From contig JAVZCZ010000001.1 of the NCBI GenBank assembly GCA_038874135.1, forward strand, positions 736,001-800,000: 64,000 nucleotides of DNA. The letters run 5' to 3'. Within the stretch, counting starts at the first letter, position 1. Every line of letters starts with the position of its first letter. Made by a program: the position numbers and the translations under genes. A model generated the notes under the pieces. That model had not been told where the DNA came from and ran no database searches. It saw only the letters and a program-made list of their open reading frames with translations. The stretch comes from Candidatus Woesearchaeota archaeon (GTDB lineage: Archaea > Nanobdellota > Nanobdellia > Woesearchaeales > 0-14-0-80-44-23). Of the stretch, positions 14,547 to 55,146 are shown piece by piece.

Positions 14547-14723
14547 ATGGGAAGGCAGCAGAATAAGGAAACCAAAGTTCTCAATATCCGCTTTTCGCCA
14601 GAAATAATCAGATGGCTGGATTCTCTTGTTGAAAAGAAGATATACTCTTCCCGATCAGAAGCCATAAGGGACTTTCTCCGCGAATTTGTTCTTAAAGCAG
14701 GAGGTGAAGAAGCTGAGCAATAG
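14547..14723 (+). CDS. Ribbon-helix-helix (CopG/Arc/MetJ) protein, 58 aa, absent from ORF track
   Basis: Manual translation MGRQQNKETKVLNIRFSPEIIRWLDSLVEKKIYSSRSEAIRDFLREFV...; classic YSSRSEAIR motif. Confidence 0.85.
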   Translation: MGRQQNKETKVLNIRFSPEIIRWLDSLVEKKIYSSRSEAIRDFLREFVLKAGGEEAEQ

Positions 14724-14925
14724 CATAGTGAGTGTTAGAATTCCTCTATCATTAGCTCAGCAGCTTGAACGCCTCTCAAAAAAAGGTCACTATCTTAACC
14801 TGAGTGAGGAAGTAAAAAGTATAGTGCGAAAGAGATGGCTGGAGCATCTGAATTCTGAATCGCGTCTTTCCGAAATAAAAAATGAGCTTAAGGCAGAGCT
14901 TGCCTTGGAGTTGAAGAAAAAATGA
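14704..14925 (+). CDS. Ribbon-helix-helix protein
   Basis: IVSVRIPLSLAQQLERLSKKGHYLNLSEEVKSIVR fits the RHH pattern; overlaps both neighbours; start uncertain. Confidence 0.75.
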   Translation: MKKLSNSIVSVRIPLSLAQQLERLSKKGHYLNLSEEVKSIVRKRWLEHLNSESRLSEIKNELKAELALELKKK

Positions 14926-17900
14926 AGAAGGCAGCTCTGCTTTGGATTATGGGATTAATAATATTTTTTGCTTTAGCCCAGTATGCGCTCTCAGAAGTAA
15001 GTCCAGTTAGTATATCTATAAATCAGCCGGTAGAAGGAGATTCTTTGTACTCAAGCTCCTTGTACGTGCAGTTTTCAATAAATGAGAGCGGAAACTATAA
15101 CTGCACCTTAACTCTTTACTGCGGCGACCTTGGAGGAAATGTTAGTACTTCTTTAATACTCCCTGCTCAGAACTATACAGCATTATCTCCATTAACCGTT
15201 AATCTTGATGCGCCTTCCTGCTCATACTCTTCTAACTACTTGGAAGTGCAGTGCTCAGATGAGCAAGCCTATGGCAATGCCTCTACATATTTTTACATAT
15301 TTGAACTTCCATCCGTGAATACTTACGAACCGAACGATTCTGCAATAATAAACTCTTCCTCATTCCAATTTGAATATGAAATTCTGCCAGAATCGTCAGC
15401 ATACTTAGTTAAAAACTGCGCCCTTATATTAGATGGAACTTCCTGTAACTCTACTGATTTACCTCACAATGGAACAAACAGCATAAGCTGCCCGTTCAGT
15501 GAAGGATCTCACACTTGGAAGGTGCTCTGCACACTCATAGGCTCAGGCCAGGAAACTATTGAAAGTCAAGAAAGAGGATTCTTTGCAGATTATAGTCCTC
15601 CAAATATAAACCTAATTAATCCAAACCAGCCCGCTTACAATTCAGATGTTCCCATTGAATTTAACATTACAGACTCTGCCTCTTCATCATTCAATTGCAC
15701 AATATCCGGCATTCCAGCACCATTCAATCTCAGCTCACTTGTTTCCTACTCTTCTAAGCTTAACCTTCCAGTAGGAAAATATAATCTAACGATTTCCTGC
15801 TCAGATGCTGCTGGAAATTCTGCATATACTTGGCAAGAATTTGAACGAATAAATCTTTCAGTTTCAACTGACAAAAAATATTATATTCCTATGGAAAATG
15901 TGTTTATAACGCTGAACGCTCCTCCTTCCCAAACAAATATCTCAGTTTCAAAAGGCAATTTCACACTGTCCAAAACAACAACTCCACCATATCCAATAGT
16001 CTACATCTTCACATCCTCAAACGAGCCTGGAGATTACCTGGTGCAGGCATTTACAACATATAACAACATAACATTCACTGCCAACACCTCATTCTCAGTC
16101 AATATAACTAGAAACCTTACACTTTCAATATCAGCTAACACCACAACAGCTGAGCCCGGAGTAAGAATCCTATTCTATTCTAATGTTTCAGGAAACCTCA
16201 CTCCTGTTACATACTTGTGGGACTTTAATAATGATAACCTTCCCGAAAGCAGCCTTCCAAATACCGAATACTCTTTCTCACAGCCTGGAAGATACCTCGT
16301 AACTTTAAAAGTGAACGACTCATATTCCTCCGCCTCAGCTTCAATAAATATAACAGTGCTCTCCAGAGCAAATTTGAGCATTACAGTTCTTAACAGGCTT
16401 GGAGAACCTCTCGCTGGAGCAAACATCACGCTAGGCAACACATCTGCCATAACCAACTCCTCTGGAGCAGCAGTCATGCAGAATCTGCTTCAAGGCACAT
16501 ACCCTATAAATGTAACAGCCACAAATTACAATTCGTATTTCAACACAGTGGACATTTCCTCTAACAAAAACATAACAATATATCTACAAGAGCTCACAGA
16601 AGAGCCGGAAATCCTAATAACAGAACCAACAGATGGTGCTACAATAACATCCCTTCCAATTACAATAAGGTTCAAAGCAAATTTATCATATCCTACAAAC
16701 TGCACACTATACAAAAATGAACAACAATCCTGGTGGGAACAGCTTTCTCAGATGGCTGTTACAAACAACACTGAAAATACCTTGTCAGTAGCCAATCTCA
16801 CGGACGGGCAAGTTCTTCTAAGAATCGTATGCACAGATGTATTCGGAAACAGTGGCACCCAACAGATTTCCCTTAACATCAGCACACTACCAAAAGAGCC
16901 GCAATATCCAGAACTAGACCAGGCAGAAGAAGAGCTCTACACAAAACAGGAATACTACAACAGCATAGGACCAGCACAGCTTGAAGCAGCTCAACTATTA
17001 GGTATACCTGATATGCTCTCAGATGCTCAGAACCGATTAACACTCGCCAGGAGGGATCTCTCAGACCTCTCATATTCAAAAAAGAGCCCGGAGGAAAAAG
17101 AAGCAAGAAAGAGTGAAATAATATCTGACGCCGTTTCACGAATCAATGCAATTCCAGATTCAATACAGGTGCTATCTTCTTATGAACAGATACACTATCC
17201 AACTCAGCAAGAGCTGGAAAAGGTGGCAGCTCCCTTCATCTCAGCTAATTCTCTGAAGATAGACCAGCGGACATTCCTAAGAGCAAACTCTCCACTTATT
17301 GAGCTAATAACAATAAATACAAAAGCGTTTTCAATAGTGCTAAATTATAACGGGGAGAGCCGAGAAGTGTCTGTAATAAAGCACTCTGTACAGCTCAGCC
17401 AACAGCTTAACGAATCAGCAATCTCAAACCTGATGTTAATACTCAATATTCCAAAACAGATAGCTGACTCAGCAGCAGGAATCACATTTATGGACAGGTA
17501 TGGACAAAAAGTAGTCAAAGATGATCCAATCTTTTCACTTCCTGTTACAAGCGAAATAGTTTACCAAATAAACAAGAGCATTGATGCAAATTCTGCTTCT
17601 GAGATATCACTCCTCTTAGTAAGCAAGAGTGCTTCAGTTTCAATACCAGGCATATCGGGACTGGCAGTTTCACAGACAAGGTATTCCATCTGGCCTTTCA
17701 ATCTCATTGGAGGAAAAATTGGCTCCAGTTTAGCTATTCAAATAGTAATACTTGTAGTGCTTCTTACCATATACTTAGTATACACCCTTCAGCCGGAAAT
17801 AATAAGCAGATCAGCAGATGCACTAGGAAATCATATCAAAAATCTCAGACCTCGCTCGGAAAATAGGATGAAGCAAATAGTCCATGCTGAGAAGTCAATT

Positions 17901-18440
17901 CCCACAACACTACAGAACAATTTAGCTAGCATGCCGCAGCAACAAACATACTCACCCATTCAACAACAAGTAGTTCCCATAGGGCCTGGAATGCAGCATT
18001 CTTACATTGCTTACAGAATGCAACGGGCTCTTCAGTTGGCAGAGCAGAACAACTATGAGGAAGCTTCAGCCGCATATTATGAATTAAAATTCCTTTATAA
18101 CACGCTCAGCTCTCACGAAAAATCCCTACTTTATCCGCAATTATTAAACCTGGGACACAAGCTTAACATTTCCTATATCAGACAGTTAGTTTCAGAAGCA
18201 AAGTTAAAGGTTAATTCAGACTACCAAGAAGCCCTTGAACTTTATGATAAGATCTCCAAGGCATACTCACTGCTCCCTACAGAGTTCAAGTATGCAGTGT
18301 TCTCTGAATGTCTTGAGCTTCTAAACATTCTTGAAAGGGCAAGAAAAAACCAGAACAACTCTGAAAATCAAGCAGTAACCTTCAAAAAGAAAAAAAAGAG
18401 GTGCAGGTCAAAATCACACGCCAAGGCGAGAAGGGCATAA
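14922..18440 (+). CDS. Large surface protein: Ig repeats, PKD domain, carboxypeptidase-regulatory-like domain, coiled coil, TM, helical (TPR-like) cytoplasmic tail
   Basis: Signal peptide; YLWDFNND..FSQPGRYLVTLKVND (PKD); PLAGANITL..TNSSG; TM LAIQIVILVVLLTIYLV; repeated YEEA..Y helices. Confidence 0.8.
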   Translation: MKKAALLWIMGLIIFFALAQYALSEVSPVSISINQPVEGDSLYSSSLYVQFSINESGNYNCTLTLYCGDLGGNVSTSLILPAQNYTALSPLTVNLDAPSCSYSSNYLEVQCSDEQAYGNASTYFYIFELPSVNTYEPNDSAIINSSSFQFEYEILPESSAYLVKNCALILDGTSCNSTDLPHNGTNSISCPFSEGSHTWKVLCTLIGSGQETIESQERGFFADYSPPNINLINPNQPAYNSDVPIEFNITDSASSSFNCTISGIPAPFNLSSLVSYSSKLNLPVGKYNLTISCSDAAGNSAYTWQEFERINLSVSTDKKYYIPMENVFITLNAPPSQTNISVSKGNFTLSKTTTPPYPIVYIFTSSNEPGDYLVQAFTTYNNITFTANTSFSVNITRNLTLSISANTTTAEPGVRILFYSNVSGNLTPVTYLWDFNNDNLPESSLPNTEYSFSQPGRYLVTLKVNDSYSSASASINITVLSRANLSITVLNRLGEPLAGANITLGNTSAITNSSGAAVMQNLLQGTYPINVTATNYNSYFNTVDISSNKNITIYLQELTEEPEILITEPTDGATITSLPITIRFKANLSYPTNCTLYKNEQQSWWEQLSQMAVTNNTENTLSVANLTDGQVLLRIVCTDVFGNSGTQQISLNISTLPKEPQYPELDQAEEELYTKQEYYNSIGPAQLEAAQLLGIPDMLSDAQNRLTLARRDLSDLSYSKKSPEEKEARKSEIISDAVSRINAIPDSIQVLSSYEQIHYPTQQELEKVAAPFISANSLKIDQRTFLRANSPLIELITINTKAFSIVLNYNGESREVSVIKHSVQLSQQLNESAISNLMLILNIPKQIADSAAGITFMDRYGQKVVKDDPIFSLPVTSEIVYQINKSIDANSASEISLLLVSKSASVSIPGISGLAVSQTRYSIWPFNLIGGKIGSSLAIQIVILVVLLTIYLVYTLQPEIISRSADALGNHIKNLRPRSENRMKQIVHAEKSIPTTLQNNLASMPQQQTYSPIQQQVVPIGPGMQHSYIAYRMQRALQLAEQNNYEEASAAYYELKFLYNTLSSHEKSLLYPQLLNLGHKLNISYIRQLVSEAKLKVNSDYQEALELYDKISKAYSLLPTEFKYAVFSECLELLNILERARKNQNNSENQAVTFKKKKKRCRSKSHAKARRA

Positions 18441-20782
18441 TTTGTGCTCTGCTTTTAGGAATTGTAACTATAATCTTAGGTAGTTATGCCTGCGCTTTGG
18501 AATTTTCACCATCTTCAATTAACGAAGTGCTTTCTATTAACAAGTTTGTTCAGAAAAACATAACTTTGAAGAATGAACTCTCCTATCCGGTAAGGATTGC
18601 TCTGGTGCCCTCTTCTAACATTAGCGATTTATTAGACATCACTCCAAATTCTATTGAAATCGGGGCAAGAGAGTCAAAGAATGTTCTGGTTACAATATAC
18701 GGAAATGTTGATCCTATAAAATTTATTAATCGCTCGTATTACATCTTTAATGGCTTCATAAAGCTTGAAGGAGCTAACGCTCAAATACCTACGGACTTGA
18801 TGGTCACTAATGGAACAATAAACCTGCCCAGCAGCATGGTGCTTTCAGCATCGGCAGGTAAGGATTATTTCACTAAATCAGAAAATCTCTCTTTTATAAT
18901 TGTTGTAACGAATCTTATGACAGGCTCAAAACCAAATGTTACTCTTTTCTATTATTTCCTAATTGATAAAAACTCAGAAATTCCCGTTGGGAACGATTCC
19001 TTCATAATTACTACTTCAAAATCAGTTGTAAAGGAATTCATACCAATGTCTTCAATACCTGATGGCACCTATACTTTCAGGGTTGTAATGTCTTATGCAG
19101 ATAAGAAGAGTGTTGCTGATGTGCCCTTCAGGATATCAACCCCATTTATATTCAGAACATTCTTAGGTATAGCTGTATGGCAGTATATACTCGGAGTGAT
19201 TGCCTTAATAATAATTGGCTTGTTAGTATACTGGCGAAGGAAGCGTGTTTTGGCTTCTCGTCGTTATGGTGTGAGTGTGGATTTGCGTAGTTTTCCTTCT
19301 TCTGGTAGGCTTGTGCGTTTGGGTAAGTTGGCGGAGTATGGGCGTGATTTTTGGTTTGATTTGGATGGTTTGACTACGCATTGTATTGTGGCTGGTGCTA
19401 CTGGTGGTGGTAAGACTGTTGCTGCTCAGGTTTTGGTGGAGGAGGCTTTGAAGGCTGGTGTGGCTGTGGTTGTTTTTGATCCTACGGCTCAGTGGAGTGG
19501 TTTTTTGAGGCCTTGTTCTGATAAGGGTATGTTGTCTTTGTATTCGGGTTTTGGGTTGCGTCGTTCTGATGCTCGGGGTTTTCCGGGTAATGTGAGGCAG
19601 GTGTTGGATGCTCGTGAGGTTTTTGATGTTAGGCGTTTTATGCGTCCTGGTGAGATTGAGATTTTGAGTTTGAATAGGTTGAGGCCTGAGGAGATTGATG
19701 TTTTTGTGGCTAATACTGTTAGGAGCGTGTTTGATGCGGGTTTGGATGAGTGTCGTGAGTTGAGGTTGTTGTTGGTTTATGATGAGGTGCATAGGTTGTT
19801 GCCGCGTTTTGGCGGTTCTGGTGAGGGTTTTGTGCAGATTGAGAGGGCTTGTCGTGAGTTTAGGAAGTGGGGTGTTGGTGTTGTTTTGATTAGTCAGGTT
19901 TTGTCTGATTTTGTTGGTGAGATTAAGGCTAATATTAATACTGAGGTTCAGATGAGGACTCGTGATGAGGGCGATTTGGAGCGTATTCGTGTTAAGTATG
20001 GTGATGCTTATCTTAGGGGTCTTGTGAGGGCTAGTGTGGGTACTGGTATGTTTGAGAATCCCGGTTATAATGGTGGTCGTCCTTTTTTTGTTAGTTTTAG
20101 GCCTTTGTTGCATAGTGTGGTTCGTTTGTCTGATGCCGAGTTGGGTGAGTATAATAGGTTGAATGGGGTGTTGGATGATTTGGAGTTTTGGATTGGCGAG
20201 TTGGAGCGTTTGGGTGTGGACGTGTTTGATTTGAGGTTGGAGTTGAAGTTGGCTTGGGATAAGTTGAGGGTTGGGGGGTTTGGGATGGTGGATGTTTATG
20301 TTGAGGGTTTGAGGCCTCGCGTGTTGGGCGAGTTTGAGCGTTTGGGGAGGCCTGTTCCTAAGCGTGAGGTTAAACGCCTTTCAGATGAGGAGCTTGCAAA
20401 GCAGAGGAAGCTGGCTGAGCAGAGCCGTGCAGAGTTTATAAAAAAGATGGGCATTAAAGAGCAGCAGTCCAAGCAGGAGGAAAAGAAGGAAGAACACATC
20501 GTGCAGCCTTACACTTTTGATAATGGTGCAATGGTTTCGGAGCTTAAGGAGTTGAAAGACGCTATAGAACCTATGAGTGCTGACATCCTCAGAAGCGCGT
20601 TGAGTGGAAACAATAAGCTTTCTGATTGGATAAAGAATGAGCTTAAGAATGAGCAGCTTGCCTCTGAAATTGAGAAGGCGAAGACGAAAAAGGAGATTCT
20701 TGATGCAATAACTGCTGAACTTGATAAAGCAGAAAAGAGCAGTGAGAAATCTGGAACTGATAAAGGCCAAAAGTCTAAGTAG
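18401..20782 (+). CDS. Membrane-anchored HerA/FtsK-superfamily (DUF87-like) ATPase with extracellular Ig-like domains and C-terminal DUF5752-like domain
   Basis: Walker A GATGGGKT, VVFDPT, Walker B LLVYDEVH, REFRKWGVGVVLISQ; TM before the ATPase domain; start uncertain. Confidence 0.85.
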   Translation: MQVKITRQGEKGIICALLLGIVTIILGSYACALEFSPSSINEVLSINKFVQKNITLKNELSYPVRIALVPSSNISDLLDITPNSIEIGARESKNVLVTIYGNVDPIKFINRSYYIFNGFIKLEGANAQIPTDLMVTNGTINLPSSMVLSASAGKDYFTKSENLSFIIVVTNLMTGSKPNVTLFYYFLIDKNSEIPVGNDSFIITTSKSVVKEFIPMSSIPDGTYTFRVVMSYADKKSVADVPFRISTPFIFRTFLGIAVWQYILGVIALIIIGLLVYWRRKRVLASRRYGVSVDLRSFPSSGRLVRLGKLAEYGRDFWFDLDGLTTHCIVAGATGGGKTVAAQVLVEEALKAGVAVVVFDPTAQWSGFLRPCSDKGMLSLYSGFGLRRSDARGFPGNVRQVLDAREVFDVRRFMRPGEIEILSLNRLRPEEIDVFVANTVRSVFDAGLDECRELRLLLVYDEVHRLLPRFGGSGEGFVQIERACREFRKWGVGVVLISQVLSDFVGEIKANINTEVQMRTRDEGDLERIRVKYGDAYLRGLVRASVGTGMFENPGYNGGRPFFVSFRPLLHSVVRLSDAELGEYNRLNGVLDDLEFWIGELERLGVDVFDLRLELKLAWDKLRVGGFGMVDVYVEGLRPRVLGEFERLGRPVPKREVKRLSDEELAKQRKLAEQSRAEFIKKMGIKEQQSKQEEKKEEHIVQPYTFDNGAMVSELKELKDAIEPMSADILRSALSGNNKLSDWIKNELKNEQLASEIEKAKTKKEILDAITAELDKAEKSSEKSGTDKGQKSK
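19239..20394 (+). repeat. 1156 bp direct repeat, copy 1 (partner 23419-24574), G/T-rich, encodes the ATPase domain
   Basis: Sense translations and the overlapping antisense ORFs are identical; offset 4180; boundaries read from sequence. Confidence 0.95.
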
Positions 20783-20890
20783 ATTTCTTATACCTTAACC
20801 AACAATGTGGTATTTATAAACTTAGATTACTTAGTATGCATTTATACACATACACTATTTGTGTCACATTTAAAAATTAGTATATAAAAT

Positions 20891-20906
20891 GAAAATATTT
20901 ATATAT
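20891..20906 (+). promoter_or_regulatory. Putative BRE/TATA promoter for the second RHH pair operon
   Basis: GAAAATATTTATATAT, nearly identical to 42544-42558. Confidence 0.55.
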
Positions 20907-20970
20907 CAATATACATATTTAGTATGAGTTTGTATTCAAAGACCTTGAAAAGGCTTTTTTGGGACCCGAA

Positions 20971-21319: not shown

Positions 21320-24300
21320 AAATCCTACCTTCAGGATACTGGAACGGGACAGGCAGCTGGAAAGGAGAAGACAGCAGCTGTACATCCTATTAGGCATCTT
21401 AGGAGTTTTACTAGCAGTTGGTGTTATACTTCTGATAAGAATGTTCATAGGATACGCAGTTCTGGAAAGCAGGGCTGGCACAATAACACAACTTAATATA
21501 CAGCTCAGATACTCAACACACATATGGGCTGGATTTTACGGATTGGCATTCCGCGTTCCCGGATACACTGAGCAGCAGTCTGCAGTTGCAGTCGGCGGCA
21601 CAGTCTTCTTGCAGCACTTAGTATTTGACTGCTTAAAAACTACAGACGGCAACATTCCTGAGGTATATGCCAGTACTTCAAGAAACATTGACTGGAATTC
21701 ACTCCAGCCAGCAACTCCAGACTTGATTGACAGCTACCTACAAGTAGATCCTTCAGATATAACCTCTGCTTCAAACACATTTACAGAAACAATGTCAATA
21801 CTCTTAGGAGACAGAGAAATCACAAATATTGCTGCAACGCACACCAAAAAGTTCGGAGTTCCGGACAGCACGGACTTTGATATAGGCTTCTTAAAAGATT
21901 CGTTGGGAAATCTCGTATTTGTAACCCATGTAACTCCAACTTATACCAAAGGATTTAACAACCAAACTATAAACTACCAAATGCTCCTTCCAGTACAAGC
22001 AGGAACAGCTCCAGTATACTACTTCTTCTCAGACCCATATGACGAGTGCCAAGCAGGGCTTGAAGCTCTCAAAAATGCTACCATATTCGGAAGAGCCATA
22101 GACAATGCAACAGGCCTTCCACTTGAAAATGTTACAGTTAATCTTCATACTGCTACAGTTCTTACCAACTCTACAGGAGACTATTACATAGCAATATTTA
22201 ACGGCACCTACACCCTAGTAGCTTTCAAGCCGGGATATTACACCTTTGTTGCAACAAACATCACTCTCCCAGCTGACAATCTGTCTACACCTCAATCTGA
22301 AAATATTGTCGAATTTAATATATCCCTCATTCCCAACCCTGGAAACCCAACTGGACTCGGAAACCTAACTGGCACTGTAACTGATAAAGACTTCGGAATA
22401 CCCCTCTATAATGTAACAGTGTATGTAAACGGCAGAATCGCTAAGACAAACATTACAGGCCAATACCTACTTGAACTGCCAGCAGGAAATCATTCTCTTA
22501 TAGCAATGAAGGAAAACTACAGAACATACTACACTCCAAATGTAACTATACTGCCTGGAAACACCACTGAATTTAATTTCAGTATGGAATATGCAGAGCC
22601 AGAAATAAAAGAAACTCCTGGATATCCGCTAAATACCTTCGTTTCCAACCTACTCAAACAGGCAGTGCAGAGGCCTCAAATAATACTCACTCATAAGATT
22701 GATACAAAAGAGATATTTGAAACATTAAAAGTTGGCTCATATGTCCAGCGCTCATTCAATATAACGAGTTACAGGCCTGCCGAGTCCAAAGTTGAGTTTG
22801 AAGTCATAGGAAGTGCTGCACAGCTGGTAAAGGTTGACAAGAGCAGCTCAATAATACCTCCAAGGGGTGCAGAAAACTTCACCCTTACAATTCTAGCCAA
22901 TGTGCCTCCAGGCATATATACCGGAACATTCCTAATCAAAGGAGACCTTGAAGACAGAATCCCGATAAAGATAGTTGTTTATGAGAAGGATAGACTTCCA
23001 ATAGAGGCTCTTCTCCTAGAAGTAGTGCCAATAAAAAAGATAATCAGCCCAGGAGAACTATTTGAATATAAGGTCAGCATGACAAACCTGCTGAGGGACA
23101 CCCCATACAACATCACCCTTTCATACAATATCACCTCGCGCTCTTCAAATCTTACTATTCCCGTTGAAGAAGAGACGAGACTCTTGGAAACTCAGCTTTC
23201 CTACCTTAAGTATTACAAGCTTCCCAAAGACCTGCCAGAAGGAGAATACTTCCTTGAAACTAGAGCGGAATTCTTAGAACTATCAACAAACACAAAATCG
23301 CTATTCATAGTTAAGAAGCCAATTTACATGTATGCATTATTCGGAATACTTCCCCTCTGGCAGCTTTTCATAATAATAGTTTTCACCTCCCTCATGACCT
23401 TCGCAGGATTAATGTATCGGAAGCGTGTTTTGGCTTCTCGTCGTTATGGTGTGAGTGTGGATTTGCGTAGTTTTCCTTCTTCTGGTAGGCTTGTGCGTTT
23501 GGGTAAGTTGGCGGAGTATGGGCGTGATTTTTGGTTTGATTTGGATGGTTTGACTACGCATTGTATTGTGGCTGGTGCTACTGGTGGTGGTAAGACTGTT
23601 GCTGCTCAGGTTTTGGTGGAGGAGGCTTTGAAGGCTGGTGTGGCTGTGGTTGTTTTTGATCCTACGGCTCAGTGGAGTGGTTTTTTGAGGCCTTGTTCTG
23701 ATAAGGGTATGTTGTCTTTGTATTCGGGTTTTGGGTTGCGTCGTTCTGATGCTCGGGGTTTTCCGGGTAATGTGAGGCAGGTGTTGGATGCTCGTGAGGT
23801 TTTTGATGTTAGGCGTTTTATGCGTCCTGGTGAGATTGAGATTTTGAGTTTGAATAGGTTGAGGCCTGAGGAGATTGATGTTTTTGTGGCTAATACTGTT
23901 AGGAGCGTGTTTGATGCGGGTTTGGATGAGTGTCGTGAGTTGAGGTTGTTGTTGGTTTATGATGAGGTGCATAGGTTGTTGCCGCGTTTTGGCGGTTCTG
24001 GTGAGGGTTTTGTGCAGATTGAGAGGGCTTGTCGTGAGTTTAGGAAGTGGGGTGTTGGTGTTGTTTTGATTAGTCAGGTTTTGTCTGATTTTGTTGGTGA
24101 GATTAAGGCTAATATTAATACTGAGGTTCAGATGAGGACTCGTGATGAGGGCGATTTGGAGCGTATTCGTGTTAAGTATGGTGATGCTTATCTTAGGGGT
24201 CTTGTGAGGGCTAGTGTGGGTACTGGTATGTTTGAGAATCCCGGTTATAATGGTGGTCGTCCTTTTTTTGTTAGTTTTAGGCCTTTGTTGCATAGTGTGG

Positions 24301-24854
24301 TTCGTTTGTCTGATGCCGAGTTGGGTGAGTATAATAGGTTGAATGGGGTGTTGGATGATTTGGAGTTTTGGATTGGCGAGTTGGAGCGTTTGGGTGTGGA
24401 CGTGTTTGATTTGAGGTTGGAGTTGAAGTTGGCTTGGGATAAGTTGAGGGTTGGGGGGTTTGGGATGGTGGATGTTTATGTTGAGGGTTTGAGGCCTCGC
24501 GTGTTGGGCGAGTTTGAGCGTTTGGGGAGGCCTGTTCCTAAGCGTGAGGTTAAACGCCTTTCAGATGAGGAGCTGCAGAAGGAAAAGGAGATTGCTATGC
24601 AGGAACATGAGAAAGCAAAACAGCAGGAAGCAGGACAAACTTCACAAAATTCAGATTCCAAGACAGAAACTTCCCAAATTCAAAACACAAAAGTTGAAGA
24701 GCAGCCCAGCCAAAATGAAAAGGCCGAGAACCAAGAGAATGCAAAATCCTCAAATGAAAATAAAATTAAAAGAGTAAGGGAGGGTAAAAAGCAGAGGATG
24801 AGGAAATCAGCAAGTTCGGAAAAAAATAATAAAAAAAGAGGTGCTAAAAAATGA
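21312..24854 (+). CDS. Membrane-anchored HerA/FtsK-superfamily ATPase with N-terminal family-A (WxGxYG) domain, two carboxypeptidase-regulatory-like domains and Ig-like domains
   Basis: N-terminal TM; AGTITQL..WAGFYG..YQMLLP..YYFF domain; DNATGLPLENVTV and DKDFGIPLYNVTV repeats; second TM; ATPase domain identical to that of 18401-20782. Confidence 0.85.
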   Translation: MNKNPTFRILERDRQLERRRQQLYILLGILGVLLAVGVILLIRMFIGYAVLESRAGTITQLNIQLRYSTHIWAGFYGLAFRVPGYTEQQSAVAVGGTVFLQHLVFDCLKTTDGNIPEVYASTSRNIDWNSLQPATPDLIDSYLQVDPSDITSASNTFTETMSILLGDREITNIAATHTKKFGVPDSTDFDIGFLKDSLGNLVFVTHVTPTYTKGFNNQTINYQMLLPVQAGTAPVYYFFSDPYDECQAGLEALKNATIFGRAIDNATGLPLENVTVNLHTATVLTNSTGDYYIAIFNGTYTLVAFKPGYYTFVATNITLPADNLSTPQSENIVEFNISLIPNPGNPTGLGNLTGTVTDKDFGIPLYNVTVYVNGRIAKTNITGQYLLELPAGNHSLIAMKENYRTYYTPNVTILPGNTTEFNFSMEYAEPEIKETPGYPLNTFVSNLLKQAVQRPQIILTHKIDTKEIFETLKVGSYVQRSFNITSYRPAESKVEFEVIGSAAQLVKVDKSSSIIPPRGAENFTLTILANVPPGIYTGTFLIKGDLEDRIPIKIVVYEKDRLPIEALLLEVVPIKKIISPGELFEYKVSMTNLLRDTPYNITLSYNITSRSSNLTIPVEEETRLLETQLSYLKYYKLPKDLPEGEYFLETRAEFLELSTNTKSLFIVKKPIYMYALFGILPLWQLFIIIVFTSLMTFAGLMYRKRVLASRRYGVSVDLRSFPSSGRLVRLGKLAEYGRDFWFDLDGLTTHCIVAGATGGGKTVAAQVLVEEALKAGVAVVVFDPTAQWSGFLRPCSDKGMLSLYSGFGLRRSDARGFPGNVRQVLDAREVFDVRRFMRPGEIEILSLNRLRPEEIDVFVANTVRSVFDAGLDECRELRLLLVYDEVHRLLPRFGGSGEGFVQIERACREFRKWGVGVVLISQVLSDFVGEIKANINTEVQMRTRDEGDLERIRVKYGDAYLRGLVRASVGTGMFENPGYNGGRPFFVSFRPLLHSVVRLSDAELGEYNRLNGVLDDLEFWIGELERLGVDVFDLRLELKLAWDKLRVGGFGMVDVYVEGLRPRVLGEFERLGRPVPKREVKRLSDEELQKEKEIAMQEHEKAKQQEAGQTSQNSDSKTETSQIQNTKVEEQPSQNEKAENQENAKSSNENKIKRVREGKKQRMRKSASSEKNNKKRGAKK
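23419..24574 (+). repeat. 1156 bp direct repeat, copy 2
   Basis: Matches 19239-20394. Confidence 0.95.
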
Positions 24855-39800: not shown

Positions 39801-41705
39801 AGGGCTACAACTGGAAGCACTGCTGTTGCAGAATGGCAGGTAGTTTCGTGGAGTGGTGCGAGAGTGCAGAGTGGAAACATCTCTTTCATAACAGCTTCGC
39901 AGAGCGTCCCCATAGAAGAGGTTAATCTTTCCAGGAGCATGCTGATATTCAGCACTGCTGTAACTGGCAACACCAGGATAGGAGCTAACATGATTTTTGG
40001 CAACTTTACCAATTCCACAACAGCATACTTCTCAAGAACGAATGCTGCAGGAACAGCATATGTTTCCTGGTTTGCAGTTGAGCTTCCCCAATACTACTCA
40101 GTACAAGCCGGAACAGTTTCAATCACAGCAGATACCAATGTTCAAATATACCCCGTGCGCACTGAGAAGACATTTCATCTGCACTCAGCTTCAGCAGTAG
40201 GAGCAACCAGCACTACCTACTCTGATGCCCTAATAAGAGCCGAGCTAACAAATAGCTCAAATCTTATGCTGGATAAGGTGTCTGGCACAAATACCAACTA
40301 TGTTGCCTGGTTTGTAGTAGAAGAAAAATATCTTTCAGCTAATTCGGGAATGGAAGAAGCTTTAATGGCATACAACTACAACTCCACATTGACAGGGCTT
40401 TACACTCTAAGTTGGGTTTCCGGAAAGAGCCCGGTGGGCAACTACACCTTTGTATACTCTGCAACAAAAACTAATTACTCATCTGCAAGGGCATACTCCA
40501 CATTTGAGATAATTCCAGACACAACTCCGCCCAATGTTACGCTTGTAAGCCCACTTCAACTTGAAAAGAGGGGCGTCGGAAATATAATCTTTTCCTACAT
40601 ACCTTATGACTTGAACCTTCTAAACTGCACACTCTACCTTGGAAAGGACGGAACTTTTTCTCCGAACATTACGAGCACGAGTCCAATAAATAATGCAGTA
40701 AACAATCTTTCAGTATACTTAGACATCGGATTATACACTTGGAATGTGCTTTGTAGGGACAGTGAAGGAAACTCTGCATTTGCTCTGCAGAACAGGACAC
40801 TTAACATAACAGGCCCAGACCTATACCCTGTTGCTGTTTGGTTTAGCAACACGCCCAGGATTGAGACCGTTAACACAACCATCTTTGTTAACATTTCTAA
40901 TAAGGGGCTTTCTGATTGTACTAAAAACTTCACTGTTGAGTTCAGGAGAAGTGGGCTGCTCATAGGCAATCTGAGTGTGCAGGGGCTGCTGATTGGCGAA
41001 GTTAAAAGCTTGAACTCTTCATTCCTGTTAGGTCCCGGCATTAATAATTTAAGTATTAGCATAGATCCTGATAACAGGATTAACGAGTCGGACGAGTCAA
41101 ACAACAATGCTTATGAGGTTATTGCTGTTGAGTTTTATCAGTACTATTACGGAAATCTTAGCTTTTTACAGGTTTTGAGCAAGTCCTCAAACGAGTCTGT
41201 ATTCACTTGGGAAAATTCAAATCCTGAAGATGGGGTTATTTTAGTTGCTGATATTGATTCAAAATTTGAGATTGGAAACTTAAGAGCCCTGACTCGGAAT
41301 GCAAATGGGGATCCAGTTATAAATGATCTTTCAGAATTGGATGAGGCTTTTAATTCTTCAAATCTTAACGATTCTATTAAGAATGTGTGGGGAAACGGCA
41401 CTGACATTCCAATAATGACTGCCAACTTTACGATAGGACAGTTTAATATTTCTAACGTTCCGGTAGCATATTCCAGAAATTCCACTTCTTCAATTACGGG
41501 AATACTCTGGGACTCTGCAGATGATTTAAGCCACAACCTTCAGTATGACAGCTCTGATAGGGAAGATATAGTTCTAATCACAAAGATTCACCCGTTAGCA
41601 GACTGTTCTTTTGGTAGCTGCAATTATGAGATAAGAATTCCAGCAGCTCTACGCTCTTACAAGCCTAACACCGACCTCGTAGTTTTTTACACCATGCTAA
41701 ACTGA
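33867..41705 (+). CDS. Giant secreted Ig-repeat surface protein/adhesin (2612 aa) with propeller-like repeats, DUF2341-like segment, lectin-like repeats, CARDB-like and C-terminal family-A domain
   Basis: Signal peptide; 50-aa SVSVSA.NSSAFV.GWYD repeats; WWNTSFKYRRPI..YYVYYGN; V(N/D)..R(A/S)F..W.V(I/V)E repeats; IDPDNRINESDESNN. Confidence 0.85.
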   Translation: MKRSITFGIIFLLLIALSLKISSASCPEIILSSNTTIKDVDIKIKVSGQTQESELVIRTPSGPYRLLGDIPSLTSFTPKDVGNYSVEVWQDKVLCDIKNFTALPHNNSTLFLPPILSTDKKEYHLGEAVRISLSPEYYGYSIEGLNLKLLTGQQSYSLLGEISEDIEFRPVFEGNYTILLLDSIGNTLASESFSVYALNSYFVNNLSIKKRFSDKFEYNISTNSEDMIVEFSNSFIKRLNLKKLSSSNLAIVRISELLPEERSRLNIPTIGGEIKESFELDPSALNFSEGELTIVPSGNELWKCTDWNYDAQYCVGSWIKQQNLVPGVENVIKFNLSDPGYAIVATANITSIAAATLSENSFVVAYCDDTNDRTAFKVFWANGSVRTNEVIVDSTTGNCGYTSVSVSALTNNSFVIGWIDTASSYASFAVYDASGNVITPRVDVDTTAGTSRSVSVSAFNSSAFVFGWYDQASAYASFRTFSSSGVAISSVVNVDTTAGTCNAVSVSAVNSSAFVFGWYDQASSDMTFRTYTSSGVAISAVTDVNTKVGTGSFSVSVAAYNSSAFVIVWYDQRLGYVSFRQYSVAGVQIGSQVNPDTAVGTTASGVFVSSVGVNSSVFAVGWNDLTTDVVSSVRTYSGAGAAVSSEVVVQANALKYNALAGYYPATGIGFCNGNFVAIIVNTSSQAFFKAYMPNGSEWDGNCPDVIPPQVVLNSPQQAAVFYSDTVDFNFTVTDNVDLVIPNCTLWINTSSTFSPNITIYNITSNKMNNITLSQIPDNKYIWNVRCYDNAGNSAFASSNFSLFINKNPPQILNPLLNESTVNQSHSVKFNVSITDSYGIDSAYITMMYPNGSSNNYYLNRSGNEFYFIINNTIQIGTYSVIYVWANDTLGQNSSLTLSDLQFNVTPSPPAQFNLLSPPNATESTNLRPNLTWETSYDETFLNYTIQISQDENFATVLFTYYNPGVYNTSRVLDYALEANKKYYWQVIAYDTFGNYKYSTNYFSYITDTLAPSIVLNMPGNLSFINSTQVNFTFTPSDANTISRCTLYLNVTGAFLPNTSITQVVKDTPNLIQAEIKDEGAHLWNILCNDSAGNSAFAPQNFTFISDLNPPSIQLLSPPNGSTYNISNFVNFTINASDRISAVYRCTLIINGQPVLTSYSVQDGVPYTFQYFLLNGNYSWQAECYDLNGHSNLSYSYNISVLVIDSVPPIVTLTSPAQDQYLSSKTVLFNYTPQDATGIKNCTLFIDGNENETDFSVRNLEPNYFLLEYLEDGVHNWTVLCFDNSSQQNSYAPTPVRFSIDTTPPSVILISPEDGVLTNNSLVTFVYAPSDANLENCSLYTNSSSEWMMESTDFYPINNQQNVFQKSVADGVLVWNVVCYDKGGLSSFADFNRTLNVDTTPPRYANITLIPTSPTEYSPYGEYYFNITWIDDFNLSSVYFESNFSGTFENESPNHFENIYYVHKTGLNSGTYQIRWYATDSAKNQNETPAIQYDITKAEPNLTLKINNYSYNLTVEEDSIVNISAELLEPPGAYLSIYINNNLITNGTSPIYTTYNFTEPGSYNVTASFEGSQNYLSAFRTIIVNVSDTTPPIIVPIFPQNNSFIGENHIVFSYNVTDSSQIANCSLFINRTLNQSNTSIQNGINYFEVDFQDGNYSWHLSCYDEFSNYAESPEIYFTSIRSDKIIASAHPQQPQYQKGETAILIGNTTSIFGTPLDTNIYANVIRGNTTIEWWNTSFKYRRPIFINNSMNASTYLQALINISNLSASISNCSELRIVMNNSFEHTLIPSEVLLEEGNASCLLRFNANASALATNENNYYVYYGNSGAGAQQQLPELAGISVQRKSVVGTTTSITDTMSEVNTSRAFLLFSANVASSTPAVWEITGRILSSTQVVFERYSGTTSANISWQVIEGSEINVQRGTASFGATQSNTTILIDSVNLNESFIIITGRTSSTTAGNANMGFFRAMFLNSTAIYIERATTGSTAVAEWQVVSWSGARVQSGNISFITASQSVPIEEVNLSRSMLIFSTAVTGNTRIGANMIFGNFTNSTTAYFSRTNAAGTAYVSWFAVELPQYYSVQAGTVSITADTNVQIYPVRTEKTFHLHSASAVGATSTTYSDALIRAELTNSSNLMLDKVSGTNTNYVAWFVVEEKYLSANSGMEEALMAYNYNSTLTGLYTLSWVSGKSPVGNYTFVYSATKTNYSSARAYSTFEIIPDTTPPNVTLVSPLQLEKRGVGNIIFSYIPYDLNLLNCTLYLGKDGTFSPNITSTSPINNAVNNLSVYLDIGLYTWNVLCRDSEGNSAFALQNRTLNITGPDLYPVAVWFSNTPRIETVNTTIFVNISNKGLSDCTKNFTVEFRRSGLLIGNLSVQGLLIGEVKSLNSSFLLGPGINNLSISIDPDNRINESDESNNNAYEVIAVEFYQYYYGNLSFLQVLSKSSNESVFTWENSNPEDGVILVADIDSKFEIGNLRALTRNANGDPVINDLSELDEAFNSSNLNDSIKNVWGNGTDIPIMTANFTIGQFNISNVPVAYSRNSTSSITGILWDSADDLSHNLQYDSSDREDIVLITKIHPLADCSFGSCNYEIRIPAALRSYKPNTDLVVFYTMLN
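35187..35842 (+). repeat. 656 bp direct repeat, copy 1 (partner 45768-46423), G/T-rich, contains internal ~150 bp units
   Basis: Sense and antisense translations identical over the tract; offset 10581. Confidence 0.95.
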
Positions 41706-42632: not shown

Positions 42633-42671
42633 GCTTATTTACAAGCTTAAAGCAAGCAAGAGGGTGTCAAC

Positions 42672-44405: not shown

Positions 44406-44412
44406 GCCAGAG

Positions 44413-45330
44413 GTGATTAAATTGAAAATCAAGCAAGCCATTCAAGCATTGGCAGTGGGACTTCCTCTGGCATTCCTGCTCTACTTTTGGACTGCCTCAC
44501 TAATATTATTTGCAGGCAAGGCTGAAGCAGTTTCATCCTGGAATGTTAATGCTACAGTCAATGTAACAAACGCTCCGCCAACAGTTGTGAGCGTGCTTTT
44601 AGACGACAATGTAACATCGCCTGCTGACACAATTGACCTAGTAGCAGGGGGCACTCAGCTAGTTTACTGCAACGCTACCGTGAATGATACTAACGGGTAC
44701 TTAGACATAACTAGCGCTAGGGCTGTGCTCTACCACTCTTCCTCAACCCCCAATGCAGCTGATAACAACGAGACGCACTACACTAACAACTCATGCACAC
44801 TACTCGCCGGCTCAGGCATATCCAGACCTGTTTCCTGCGCATTCAATATGCTTTACTACGCAACTAACGGCACTTGGACTTGTAATGTAACTGCTTTTGA
44901 CTCAGATAATGCCAACGGCACCGGCATAGATACTGCAAATGTGAGCATACTTGTAGCACTTAACATCTCTACACAGGTTCTAAACTATGGAAACCTTGCT
45001 CCACTGCAGGAATCCAGCCCGGTTACAGAAACAATAACAAACCACGGCAATGTGCAGATTGACCTCGTGCTGAATGGAACAGACATGCCCTGCACTTCAG
45101 TAGGAATAATAACTCCAAACGCACAGCATTATAATGTTACAGGAACAGGAACGACTTATGCCACAATGACTCCCCTGCAGTACAATCCCGTGACCGAAAC
45201 CTCATTTAACCTTGCGAAGAGGACTGACGCTGCTGAGAGCACAAGGGCAACCTACTGGAAAATCATACCTCCAGTAGGAACCAAGGGGATATGCACAGGA
45301 AATGTAACAATAGCAGCAGTAGTGGGATAA
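44413..45330 (+). CDS. Secreted family-B protein (two beta-sandwich domains, pilin/WxL-like C-terminus)
   Basis: N-terminal hydrophobic leader; LLDD..IDL.AG..CN.T..D.NG..YYA.NGTWTCNVT; YG..AP..ITN.GN..ID; YW..P.G.KG.C.G. Confidence 0.75.
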   Translation: MIKLKIKQAIQALAVGLPLAFLLYFWTASLILFAGKAEAVSSWNVNATVNVTNAPPTVVSVLLDDNVTSPADTIDLVAGGTQLVYCNATVNDTNGYLDITSARAVLYHSSSTPNAADNNETHYTNNSCTLLAGSGISRPVSCAFNMLYYATNGTWTCNVTAFDSDNANGTGIDTANVSILVALNISTQVLNYGNLAPLQESSPVTETITNHGNVQIDLVLNGTDMPCTSVGIITPNAQHYNVTGTGTTYATMTPLQYNPVTETSFNLAKRTDAAESTRATYWKIIPPVGTKGICTGNVTIAAVVG

Positions 45331-45377
45331 ACTTTTTTTATAAAACTTTTTAAATATATTCTCATTTTAAATGGCTA

Positions 45378-53244: not shown

Positions 53245-53409
53245 TTTCAGCCGCTCCTCGGAAATTCCCGAATTACTTTAATTACTTCAATTGTTAAAAG
53301 AATTTAAATAGTTTTCTATATTAAAATTATAAAAGTTATAAAAATTATTTAACTAATCTTAACAACTTAAACTATAAAAATAATATATATAAGAATTGAA
53401 AATGGTTTT

Positions 53410-55146
53410 TTAGTAAGCGTATTCTTCTTTCTTCTTCCTTCTCTTAAAGAAGGCTATCACTATCAACACTATCAGTACCGCTATTGCAATGGGAAGCCCA
53501 TAGGTTGTAGCATAATACACATAATCAAATCCTGCTTCTTTCATTGGGAACTTGGCTGTCTTAAACTTCACTAGAGCATCTTGCCGCTCTCCGTAGTAAG
53601 CATTAACTGTTATCTGAGAATTTTCATTTATGTCACCTTCAGTAAGCTTCTCAGGTGCGTAAACCTCTATCTTTCTCTTTTCTCCAGGCAGCAGTGCAAA
53701 GGCGCCTTTTGAGGAGATCGTAGTGGGTATTCCATTAATTATTACATCCGGAAGCTCTACACTCACATAAGCCTTAACCCTTCCAATGTTCTCTATCTCA
53801 ACCAGGAATGCACCCGTTCGCGCATTATACTCTAAGTTGGTTATGTTGATATCTGAGTTGTCCATAACTTCAATTACTGATATTACAACTGTTGCCTGAA
53901 GCACTTTTTCCAATGACTTTTTAGACTCGCCATACAGCGTGTAAAGGCTAGCACTTATATTTCCCTGCAATCTTTCAGAAACTGGATATGTCACTGTCTT
54001 CTTTGAATTCCCATCTATAAAGACAGCTTCAGAATCTCCAACACTAACCCTATTGCCATTTTCGTCACTTAGGATGATAGTTCCCTTAAAGTAAGCTGCT
54101 TGGGGTTTTGGATTTGAGTATGTGACCTCTAACCTCTGAGTTGCTCTATTGTAAGTTATCTGAAATAGTTCAAGCTGCAGCTCATATTTGGGAAGATAAA
54201 AGAGATCCAGCCCTTCTACCTGTGCTATTGCGCCCTGAGGATTTCTAGCTCCTTGAGCAAACTTTACAAACACGCTCAGCCCAAGGTTTCTTCTAAGCGT
54301 AGTTGCAGTTCCAACCAGCTCATTTCCTATGAGGACTGCAAACTTTATACCGCTCTTCTTTACAAACTCGCTTACAACATCTGGAACATTGTTTGAACCT
54401 ATGAATATTACCGGCTCAACCCCGCTCATTATCTCTTTTTCTATGAACTCTCCATTTGTGAATATGACCTGCTTTTTGTCAGATATTGCAAGATATCTCT
54501 TTTGTATTTCTATGTTGTTCTCAAAGCGGTCGCCTTCCTTGTTTATCACTTCAGGATTGTATTTCTGGAAGGTGGAAAGCACGCTCCTATCCACATTTCC
54601 ATAAATTATTATCTTATCAACTCTTCGCGAGGATAGAAGAGCATCTACTCTGCCCACATTTCTGCTGTTCACAAATAAGACATACCAGCCGTCCAAAACA
54701 GCATATGGTGCCACAGATATGGCATTATAGCCATACGAATCATCTATTATTATAAACTTGGTAATCTGCGGGAGGTTGTTTTTTAGCAAATCTAAGTTTA
54801 CATCCGAATATGAAAGCTCTTCTGCATTGAAACCACGCGCCTCAACAATAGCCCTATACCCAACAACATATGGAACTTTTGAGGAGCTGATTATCTGAAT
54901 GTTCTTCTTATTTGGATCTATCGTATTCAAAAGAAGAGGGCCCGCCTTGCTGCTTACTAAAAAGCCGTTATCAGCTTTTATCAGGTTGGCGTATAAAAGC
55001 GTTGAATAAACATCTCGCCAGTCCTGCGAATTGGCTATTACATAATCCGGAGTAAGCGCTTGAACCCCCCTTGCTATGAGTATTCCAGCAATAATGAGAA
55101 TTATTCCAAAAGCCAACCTGCTCCTCTTCATAAGTTTCCACCCCAA
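53410..55146 (-). CDS. Secreted, C-terminally anchored surface protein with cell-wall-binding-repeat-2-like alpha/beta units and Ig domains
   Basis: Signal peptide; AISVAPYA..VLFV, IIIYG, GDRFENNIEI; C-terminal TM plus KRRKKK. Confidence 0.7.
   Translation of the reverse strand: MGWKLMKRSRLAFGIILIIAGILIARGVQALTPDYVIANSQDWRDVYSTLLYANLIKADNGFLVSSKAGPLLLNTIDPNKKNIQIISSSKVPYVVGYRAIVEARGFNAEELSYSDVNLDLLKNNLPQITKFIIIDDSYGYNAISVAPYAVLDGWYVLFVNSRNVGRVDALLSSRRVDKIIIYGNVDRSVLSTFQKYNPEVINKEGDRFENNIEIQKRYLAISDKKQVIFTNGEFIEKEIMSGVEPVIFIGSNNVPDVVSEFVKKSGIKFAVLIGNELVGTATTLRRNLGLSVFVKFAQGARNPQGAIAQVEGLDLFYLPKYELQLELFQITYNRATQRLEVTYSNPKPQAAYFKGTIILSDENGNRVSVGDSEAVFIDGNSKKTVTYPVSERLQGNISASLYTLYGESKKSLEKVLQATVVISVIEVMDNSDINITNLEYNARTGAFLVEIENIGRVKAYVSVELPDVIINGIPTTISSKGAFALLPGEKRKIEVYAPEKLTEGDINENSQITVNAYYGERQDALVKFKTAKFPMKEAGFDYVYYATTYGLPIAIAVLIVLIVIAFFKRRKKKEEYAY

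Follow-up and report, generated by a model that had tools for sequence, protein, structure and literature searches.

Two probable SPEARE-family ATPases and a possibly split, modular surface-protein locus in a Woesearchaeota-type archaeon

What is the long run of ATPase and surface-protein genes at positions 14547-55146 of a 64,000-nucleotide stretch from a Candidatus Woesearchaeota archaeon, and does it encode a machine that has not been described? The stretch, which is called the window in its full length, covers 736-800 kb of a closed 909,956-bp genome that is 99.4% complete, and its source is a tiny, probably symbiotic DPANN archaeon of the Woesearchaeota type. Much of the diversity of archaea belongs to the DPANN group, whose members need contact with a host cell; to our knowledge, no DPANN contact machinery is understood mechanistically. 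A reading of the sequence alone (the sequence-only reading) had proposed an undescribed surface machine, in which a filament or adhesin apparatus stands on an ATPase base. The present analysis gave a different answer for the core of the locus: its two ATPases very probably belong to the published SPEARE family. How the other genes are attached to this core is the second part of the question.

SPEARE proteins were described as nanohaloarchaeal giants, mostly extracytoplasmic, that have a transmembrane (TM) helix close to the C-terminal end and whose intracellular tail is conserved; similar tails were noted in Woesearchaeota and other DPANN archaea, Woesearchaeota homologues are given in Table S3, and versions of 655 and 717 amino acids (aa) are also listed (Hamm 2019, PMC6642349). 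In a later re-annotation, the tail was assigned to an ATPase resembling VirB4/TraG and to a coiled coil, another ATPase gene was noted immediately downstream (SVXNc_0299/0300), and a secretion "straw" was proposed (Reva 2023, PMC10266531). Secretion or DNA uptake was the role proposed in both papers. Residues 457-517 of ATPase-1 in the window were 69% identical (E 2e-29) to a 61-residue stretch of the printed tail of the 5,998-aa Ca. Nanohaloarchaeum antarcticus protein (Hamm 2019, SI Fig. S18), a comparison that covered this short typed stretch of the tail only. The motifs DPTAQWSGFLR, DEVHRLL.KFGGSG, REFRKWGVG, and FRPLLH..RLSDE were common to the consensus of the ATPase family and the SPEARE tail. 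The architecture was also alike, with an immunoglobulin (Ig)-rich ectodomain, a TM helix, a cytoplasmic P-loop ATPase and then a coiled coil, and with a neighbouring second ATPase gene of the same type. The claim of an undescribed machine thus failed at its core, since a design of adhesin, TM helix, and ATPase with a tandem second ATPase had already been published under the SPEARE name, to which the tail homology leads. The look-up of a homologue gave RLE42698.1, which is not among the accessions of Hamm 2019, and a direct accession link to their entries was therefore discarded.

The locus differed from the published SPEARE proteins in two respects. The ATPase proteins are not giants (793 and 1180 aa), and the anchorless giants of 2346 and 2612 aa have genes of their own. 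Giant size is no strict criterion of the family, because the 655- and 717-aa versions are listed in Hamm 2019 and relatives of the present locus have fused forms. In addition, the SPEARE papers do not mention the two small secreted families A and B, the membrane proteins M1172 and M844, the coiled-coil protein CC385, the DUF5752-like modules, or the RHH genes.

Two TM-tethered ATPases of the HerA/FtsK superfamily with extracellular Ig domains had been seen in the sequence-only reading, and both were confirmed, as members of the HerA clade; on ATPase-2 the Ig-like part comprised two CarboxypepD_reg domains (E 4e-22). The ectodomains lie between TM helices 8-36 and 249-281 in ATPase-1 and between 20-53 and 670-703 (~620 aa) in ATPase-2, and the two genes are 530 bp apart. 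ATPase-1 has intact Walker A (GATGGGKT) and Walker B (VYDEVH) motifs, and ATPase-2 carries the same ATPase module. The module matched Pfam DUF87/HerA_C above the cut-off, and all PDB chains retrieved with the family profile were HerA, with 4d2i first (E 1e-11). Its AlphaFold2 (AF2) model, with a predicted local distance difference test (pLDDT) value of 81, showed a helical coiled region C-terminal to the ATPase domain and gave HerA 4d2i as the best Foldseek match (E 6.6e-10), followed by the coupling protein TcpA, FtsK, and VirB4. By profile and predicted structure, the module is placed in the HerA clade of the FtsK-HerA superfamily. It fitted no curated family, as the HerA, CedD, TraD, and TraC models scored 25-35 bits against cut-offs of 366-970. 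Archaeal HerA of the HerA-NurA end-resection helicase (PDB 4d2i, 9x1m) was its closest relative in both sequence and structure, and a hexameric RecA-like translocase fold would be expected as in HerA. However, the identity was only ~15%, the ATPases here are membrane-anchored, and they have no HAS-barrel N-domain of the canonical kind, with only ~45 residues between the second TM helix and the P-loop (from 281 to ~329 in ATPase-1). No NurA or other nuclease partner of the HerA type was found among the locus proteins by family scans. Separate DUF87 genes exist elsewhere in the same genome.

Strong homologues of the ATPase (E<=1e-30) were found in 16 of 60 related genomes (given G labels) at 43-58% identity, one of them as a partial match at a contig end. 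All 16 genomes belong to other families of the same order, and no homologue was found in the three same-family genomes searched. A phylum-wide sample of 151 high-quality genomes included 29 with the ATPase, and at least 573 loci were counted in species-representative genomes. Homologues of the locus proteins bear the names of Woesearchaeota, Pacearchaeota, or Nanoarchaeota. In G021, G033, G036, G037, and G044, one ATPase copy forms the C-terminus of a fused giant, with open frames that range from 5,200 aa to beyond 6,700 aa; near it lie a second ATPase of ~670-700 aa (G033, G036, and G044) and a CC385 homologue (G021, G033, G037, and G044). Tandem ATPase pairs were seen in G029, G033, G036, G044, and L034, the last being a close, independent relative from the ENA in which every gene from the permease to giant-1 is in the same order as in the window. 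Among published candidates for DPANN contact, SPEARE proteins are the foremost, and they have so far been treated as single giants of salt-loving lineages; the present counts indicated that this motor family is common in Woesearchaeota-type genomes, with a recurring set of partners and a split form. As a separate observation, the genome search reported ATPase-bearing frames of ~9,200-15,800 aa (G044:C41, G033:C4/C11, and G120:C10), the last ~6,600-6,700 codons of two of which were read. If these are single genes, their products would exceed the published SPEARE proteins in size and rank with the largest proteins of archaea.

The recurring partners were surveyed as homologues of window proteins in flanks of ±6 kb around 80 named ATPase loci. 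DUF5752-like modules were found at 61 loci, M1172 at 49, CC385 at 42, the RHH-like protein RHH79 at 39, and M844 at 31. The CWB2-like 578-aa protein (CWB578) was found at 18 loci, family A at eight, family B and the anchored protein Ig396 at five each, and the 274-aa Lys-rich protein at three. A polytopic 407-aa neighbour without a family accompanied the ATPase at one locus, and the 552-aa membrane protein gave no conserved neighbour signal. The RHH, M1172-like, ATPase order was repeated in G026 and G041; in G026, G041, and L034 an M1172 homologue immediately precedes the ATPase gene, and RHH79 homologues stood beside the ATPase or M1172 genes of the same three. CC385 adjoined the ATPase in L034 and in seven of ten relatives' loci. 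The locus of G041 also held an 860-aa M844 homologue and three DUF5752-like genes of the 164-aa type, and a CWB578 homologue with 50% identity was beside the ATPase in G026. The robust core comprises RHH, an M1172-type protein, the ATPases, the coiled-coil protein, DUF5752-like modules, and giant Ig proteins, to which a looser module of families A and B and Ig396 is added. Within the looser module, family A is followed by family B in L059, L094, L114, and G026 as in the window, and Ig396 homologues adjoin family B genes in G026, L074, L101, L059, and L114. The window's order RHH-RHH-famA::ATPase was found again in L070 and L096. The survey and the synteny bore out the earlier expectation that the components co-occur in other genomes.

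The arrangement of the locus itself agreed with the sequence-only reading. A co-directional plus-strand block at 14547-48854, with many 4-bp overlaps of the ATGA type, is followed by a minus-strand block at 48898-55146, and the genes are indeed cross-linked through shared domains. Such an arrangement is far beyond chance, because dozens of independent genomes show the same core synteny. The archaeal origin of the window was backed by genes for AglB/STT3, a NOG1-type GTPase, and L10e. Overall, the locus likely encodes a conserved, multi-protein envelope system that is not of the type IV kind. No T2SSE/PilB-type ATPase is present in it, as had been stated earlier, and the three matches in the genome are at 257 kb, 355 kb, and 417 kb, outside the window. 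The N-termini were read by eye as Sec signals with an AxA-type end (…AAAVLA/EPQQ), and no class III (prepilin) signal peptides were seen, again in line with the earlier claim; a type IV pilus or archaellum was rejected on these two grounds.

The domain that joins many of these genes is family A. Two families of small secreted proteins had been claimed and were found, A with free proteins of 256 and 230 aa, and B with a free protein of 305 aa and, in the 752-aa protein, a C-terminal copy. The 256-aa family A protein had at least 547 homologue clusters, all from Woese- or Nanoarchaeota, annotated as hypothetical and without a Pfam domain. Its family motifs are AxAGNVTxL, WQGYYGNVTGTITLDD, and DFQMIVxEDGH, with YYFYVEL at the extreme C-terminus. 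The AF2 model was beta-rich (pLDDT 77) with residues 26-60 disordered. PDB profiles contained no relative (only designed leucine-rich-repeat entries, E 0.035 and above), Foldseek against the PDB gave E>0.1, and the wide search by VIA returned only generic beta-sandwich matches with a best Z of 4.5, while the structure atlas matched only Woesearchaeota hypotheticals. An about 190-residue family A-like domain is located at the C-terminus of giant-1 (hhalign probability 96.8, E 2.8e-10; profile match 33295-33813) and a further one C-terminally in giant-2 (41133-41456, E 7e-7). A family A domain is also the first ectodomain module of ATPase-2, at residues 51-240 right after the first TM helix (hhalign 97.3, E 1.6e-11), and the same fusion to an ATPase was found in G026:C13 and G041:C46. 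In other genomes, family A stands at the extreme C-terminus of proteins of 625, 669, 855, 964+, and 2501 aa. This shared, plug-like domain appears to be undescribed.

Complex prediction with three copies of residues 27-256 suggested that family A associates with itself (score 0.77, against 0.00 for the best of three controls). Of proteins solved as pairs of one chain, 20 of 30 had reached this mark, as had one of 23 solved as single chains, a calibration that holds only roughly here since the own alignment and the three copies differ from the calibration set-up. The runs agreed in at least 97% of contacts with a partner pLDDT of at least 86. The predicted interface was asymmetric: one copy would contribute residues 43-72, which lack order in the monomer model, to a parallel pairing with strand 70-100 (WQGYYGN) of the next, and the acceptor motif [WY]xx[YF]YGN is retained in both giants. 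A polymer-compatible, head-to-tail interface was thus predicted for family A, in line with the sequence-only reading; polymers, rings, and lattices all require an asymmetric interface.

The two paralogous membrane proteins each place a glycosylated Ig-like ectodomain outside the cell and an intact ring-ATPase module of the SPEARE tail family in the cytoplasm. In the model proposed here, family A would be a co-assembly plug that associates asymmetrically by beta-strand pairing, tethering the anchorless giants, and other cargo ending in family A, to the base formed by ATPase-2, either directly or through a short chain of free subunits as optional spacers. We propose this docking because the giants have no anchor here and share the predicted self-associating domain with the ATPase-2 ectodomain. 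The net effect would be a non-covalent rebuilding of the single fused giant of the relatives, i.e., a split SPEARE with exchangeable adhesins. Family B may be a second module of the same design, with a free protein and a C-terminal domain. CC385, the DUF5752-like modules (of ATPase-1, M844, and the 164-aa protein), and the M1172 and M844 tails probably form an inner scaffold, and the RHH proteins probably regulate the operon. More speculatively, a hexameric ATPase could move a polymer (DNA or protein) across the host contact site, as proposed for SPEARE. We regard the description of the whole as a SPEARE-type adhesin/ATPase locus in split, modular form, docking included, as evenly balanced between right and wrong, and the assignment of family A as a docking module, made from domain sharing and predicted complexes, as slightly less secure than that. 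The literature searched, mostly without subscription journals, describes neither the partner genes nor families A and B, and within it the modular design of A and B and the fixed partner set look undescribed. A small self-associating domain that docks exchangeable adhesins could offer a rationale for changes of host range by adhesin swap, and the pieces concerned are small enough to express (the 230-aa family A protein, the ~190-aa ectodomain module, and the ~510-aa ATPase domain). Should the docking idea fail, the locus would be a further member of a known, uncharacterised family.

Several observations weigh against the docking model. The linkage of families A and B to the ATPase is only moderate, as the low counts for both families and Ig396 within 6 kb of the 80 ATPase loci indicated. 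Among the 60 relatives, nine had the ATPase and family A, seven only the ATPase, and 11 only family A; the same-genus genome G001 (93% complete) contained family A, and no ATPase was found in it. The own genome contains two further copies of family A at C1:866111-868337, ~90 kb away; their products have 239 and 237 aa and are 50% and 49% identical to the 230- and 256-aa copies of the window, respectively. Each is preceded by a small cytoplasmic gene, the second of which resembles a winged-helix regulator, and no ATPase, family B, or giant gene is near them. In the predicted trimer only one interface was full, and the third copy touched by a short tail only. The family B domain was not recovered in the anchored proteins m552, M1172, and M844 (hhalign probabilities of 2% or less), and nothing in the locus pointed to a cargo or a channel subunit.

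Some of these facts would also fit two systems that are neighbours only, a SPEARE-type ATPase operon (RHH, M1172, ATPases, coiled-coil protein, and giants) and a separate surface coat in which family A and B act as lattice or anchoring domains, the free copies building an S-layer-like sheet that cargo joins through its C-terminal family A independently of the ATPase. The 11 relatives with family A in which no ATPase was found and the ATPase-free second site in the own genome are what such a coat would give. Surface proteins are known to carry C-terminal sorting and anchoring domains, such as the type IX secretion C-terminal domain and the SLH and CWB2 modules, and the place of family A at the very end of many otherwise unrelated secreted proteins is analogous. 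An asymmetric self-interface would suit a sheet as well as a fibre, and CWB2-like and COG1361/CARDB-like envelope proteins are encoded alongside. In contrast to sorting domains, family A also exists as a free protein and inside a membrane ATPase ectodomain, it is archaeal and unrelated in sequence, and its predicted partner is itself and not a wall polymer. Its incorporation into the ectodomain of ATPase-2 and into counterparts in at least two genomes (G026 and G041) speaks against an independent coat, as does the RHH-RHH-famA::ATPase order in L070 and L096. The eight of 80 loci with family A within 6 kb also exceed the ~1-2% expected by chance (a rough estimate from copy number and genome size), and the presence of family A in only about a third of the order's genomes would be odd for a general S-layer. 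We consider the coat rather unlikely, though a serious rival of the docking model. In a literal filament, A and B would form donor-strand-type fibres like threads or TasA/Abp, nucleated on ATPase-2 and tipped by the giants, with assembly or retraction powered by the ATPase. The predicted head-to-tail interface, which uses an N-terminal extension disordered in the monomer, the several copies of free subunit genes, and the fitting polarity from base (the ATPase-2 domain on its first TM helix) through middle (free subunits) to tip (giants) would agree with it. Threads (Saci_0406), AbpA TasA-like pili, CanA cannulae, and tafi likewise consist of Sec-secreted beta-rich subunits whose N-terminal stretch pairs with the neighbour, and same-fold minor or cap proteins are encoded alongside; the family A prediction resembles these filaments. 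However, no sequence or fold relation of family A to them or to other solved pilins was detected in the searches given above, and these filaments have no ATPase-linked anchor; the known archaeal donor-strand filaments require no ATPase (PMC9715654). A cytoplasmic HerA-type ring also cannot directly drive polymerisation outside the cell. The predicted trimer had one full interface only, and the earlier filament reading was not supported; a long filament is improbable on the models, and the ATPase-powered version is at the lower end of that range.

A further reading concerns the motor and may be combined with either of the two readings above: the ring ATPases would drive a T4SS- or Ced-like conduit (T4SS, type IV secretion system) that carries DNA or effectors between symbiont and host. 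Every close structural relative of the module (HerA, TcpA/VirD4-like, FtsK, and VirB4) is a polymer translocase, the catalytic motifs are intact, and secretion or DNA uptake was the role put forward for SPEARE in Reva 2023 and Hamm 2019. Two paralogous HerA-clade ATPases with TM anchors, CedB and CedD, are also at work in the Ced DNA import system of Sulfolobales (PMC11868833), which acts at cell-cell contact; the Ced ATPases have no large ectodomains. Against a conduit, the scans of the locus proteins recognised no relaxase or nuclease, no channel like VirB6/CedA or CedE, and no pilins like VirB2 or CedA1/A2 (open reading frames below 60 aa were covered in two intergenic stretches). The polytopic 407-aa neighbour was not conserved with the ATPase. 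The NCBIfam CedD, TraD, and TraC models gave 27-32 bits against cut-offs of 366-600 through the P-loop only, and Ced membership was rejected (CedD, 32 bits against 600). The VirB4/VirD4 family level was not reached either, with 16-19 bits for TrwB_AAD_bind and T4SS-DNA_transf, below their cut-offs, and 27-30 for TraC/TraD against 366-567, and Pfam gave no match of the locus ATPases to PF03135, the VirB4 N-terminal domain. A conduit is somewhat unlikely in our judgement, though a shade less so than the coat. We find it much harder to accept that families A and B are a new strand-pairing plug by which a membrane HerA-type motor carries interchangeable giant adhesins, with ATPase-2 as base, a fibre of free subunits, and the giants as caps; such a host-attachment and transfer organelle of DPANN archaea would be unrelated to type IV pili, Ced, and the known donor-strand filaments, and we rate it as improbable, close to the long filament.

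By far the least credible of the explanations is that a mobile element has integrated here, or that the region serves in anti-phage defence, with HerA-type ATPases and RHH genes by chance. The patchy distribution of the ATPase, with the same-family genomes that gave no match, the presence of RHH genes, and the PADLOC matches of the ATPase module to the HerA and mad8 models could point that way. These matches reflect generic HerA similarity, however, and no defence model was matched by the other locus proteins, eight of which were scanned; a partner effector of HerA defence (Sir2, DUF4297, etc.) was not found beside the ATPase by PADLOC. There is no integrase, relaxase, or tRNA border, the GC content of the region resembles that of the rest of the window, and most of the encoded proteins are secreted, glycosylated surface proteins.

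The features of the locus are collected in Table 1.

Table 1. Genes and repeated cassettes of the locus, in window coordinates (TM, transmembrane helix; AF2, AlphaFold2).
Feature	Length	Position	Strand	Remarks
RHH (CopG-type) regulator	58 aa	14547-14723	+	Pfam RHH_1 24.1 bits (cut-off 20.5); also in L034
RHH-like protein (RHH79)	79 aa	14686-14925	+	Coupled to M1172 gene; no Pfam match
M1172, type I membrane protein		14922-18440	+	Signal peptide, PKD and CarboxypepD_reg Ig-like ectodomain, TM 928-962
ATPase-1	793 aa	18401-20782	+	TM, ~210-aa beta-sandwich ectodomain, TM, HerA-clade ATPase, coiled coil, DUF5752-like C-terminus
ATPase cassette	1156 bp	19239-20394 = 23419-24574	+	Base-for-base identical
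Two overlapping RHH-like genes	66 and 65 aa	20959-21319	+	Weak RHH_1, 15.0 and 13.6 bits
ATPase-2	1180 aa	21312-24854	+	TM, family A domain, two CarboxypepD_reg, beta-sandwiches, TM, ATPase module, Lys-rich tail
Lys-rich cytoplasmic protein	274 aa	24851-25675	+	No family; kept only in close relatives, e.g., L034
CC385, coiled-coil cytoplasmic protein	385 aa	25676-26833	+	Coiled-coil-type matches only
Giant-1	2346 aa	26830-33870	+	Signal peptide, Big_7/Big_13/CARDB Ig repeats, 132 sequons, no anchor, C-terminal family A-like domain
Giant-2	2612 aa	33867-41705	+	Signal peptide, beta-propeller-like repeats, Ig repeats, CARDB, C-terminal family A-like domain
Propeller cassette	656 bp	35187-35842 = 45768-46423	+	Identical, in phase; giant-2 and 752-aa protein
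Cytoplasmic protein, DUF5752-like module	164 aa	41874-42368	+	42% identical to M844 C-terminus; weak PF19027 match
Family A free secreted protein	256 aa	42672-43442	+	Own alignment, AF2 model
Small protein	67 aa	43513-43716	+	Coupled to 230-aa family A gene; no family
Family A free secreted protein	230 aa	43713-44405	+	Profile E 1.3e-70; 36% identical to 256-aa paralogue
Family B free secreted protein	305 aa	44413-45330	+	40% identical over 283 aa to 752-aa protein C-terminus
Secreted protein	752 aa	45378-47636	+	Propeller-like repeats, C-terminal family B domain
Ig396	396 aa	47664-48854	+	Ig/CARDB-like ectodomain, C-terminal TM anchor
Membrane protein (m552)	552 aa	48898-50556	-	N-terminal anchor, ectodomain, TM ~397-427, cytoplasmic tail
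M844	844 aa	50553-53087	-	Signal peptide, ectodomain, TM 662-686, cytoplasmic DUF5752-like C-terminus
CWB578	578 aa	53410-55146	-	CWB2-like ectodomain, C-terminal TM anchor

Two pairs of identical cassettes were detected within this region. The ectodomains of ATPase-1 and ATPase-2 have diverged despite the identical ATPase module. The third codon positions of the ATPase cassette comprised 1% A, 3% C, 41% G, and 56% T, the overall G+T content was 75%, and the encoded protein was rich in Arg and Val and poor in Lys, Ile, and Asn compared with its homologues. The composition of ATPase homologues at 49-58% identity was ordinary; the same amino-acid shift was seen in P0126, which was 64% identical in the A2 alignment and 71% by BLASTP. 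In L034 the two copies (6178-7298 and 10250-11369) were 99% identical with a G+T fraction of about 0.75-0.77 across most of the cassette, and an assembly artefact was ruled out as the cause of the identical cassettes by the occurrence of the same feature in this independent ENA contig. The propeller cassette showed a still stronger bias at third codon positions (79% T, 19% G, 2% C, and 0% A). The pattern in the ATPase cassette looks like concerted evolution combined with transitions biased by strand, from A to G and from C to T as read on the coding strand. Because both identical cassettes carry the same kind of skew, it is suggested that the skew is tied to the homogenisation process.

Among the envelope proteins, the two giants were confirmed as secreted and anchorless, with an N-terminal signal peptide only and 128-132 N-glycosylation sequons each. 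M1172 carries 40 sequons in its ectodomain and a helical cytoplasmic tail of ~210 aa. Ig396 had been taken for a chaperone-like anchored protein; the anchor was there, whereas the ectodomain was only Ig/CARDB-like and bore no mark of a chaperone. NCBIfam and Pfam at loose thresholds gave only sub-threshold matches for the proteins without a family, e.g., of the Ig type for Ig396. The structure atlas matched CWB578 to bacterial cell-wall-binding proteins with CW_binding_2 repeats (TM score 0.40-0.48); a weak stretch resembling ArlF reached 23 bits, below the cut-off of 110. Its close homologues are spread across Nanobdellota and Microcaldota, and CWB578 may be a general envelope-anchoring protein of DPANN archaea. 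An NV(x)NAPPT motif occurs both in the N-terminal extension of the free family B protein (WNVNATVNVTNAPPTVV, ~44530-44570) and at the start of the ectodomain of the 552-aa protein (EVNVENAPPTPP, ~50410-50450); the shared stretch is 12 residues long (hhalign E 0.022) and may be due to chance.

On the cytoplasmic side, the coiled-coil protein and the DUF5752-like proteins of the earlier reading were recovered, the latter as the 164-aa protein and the C-termini of M844 and ATPase-1. CC385 had at least 264 homologue clusters in Woese- and Pacearchaeota. Of the five RHH regulators claimed, four RHH-like genes were found (starting at 14547, 14686, 20959, and 21122), and the first alone passed the RHH_1 threshold; the 66- and 65-aa proteins were 46% identical to each other. 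Just upstream of the locus, amid other secreted or anchored proteins (6964-13152), a 776-aa secreted protein without a Pfam family (8000-10330) contained 84 cysteines (11%). The region of 7-55 kb of the window forms a surface-protein island beside the AglB glycosylation genes.

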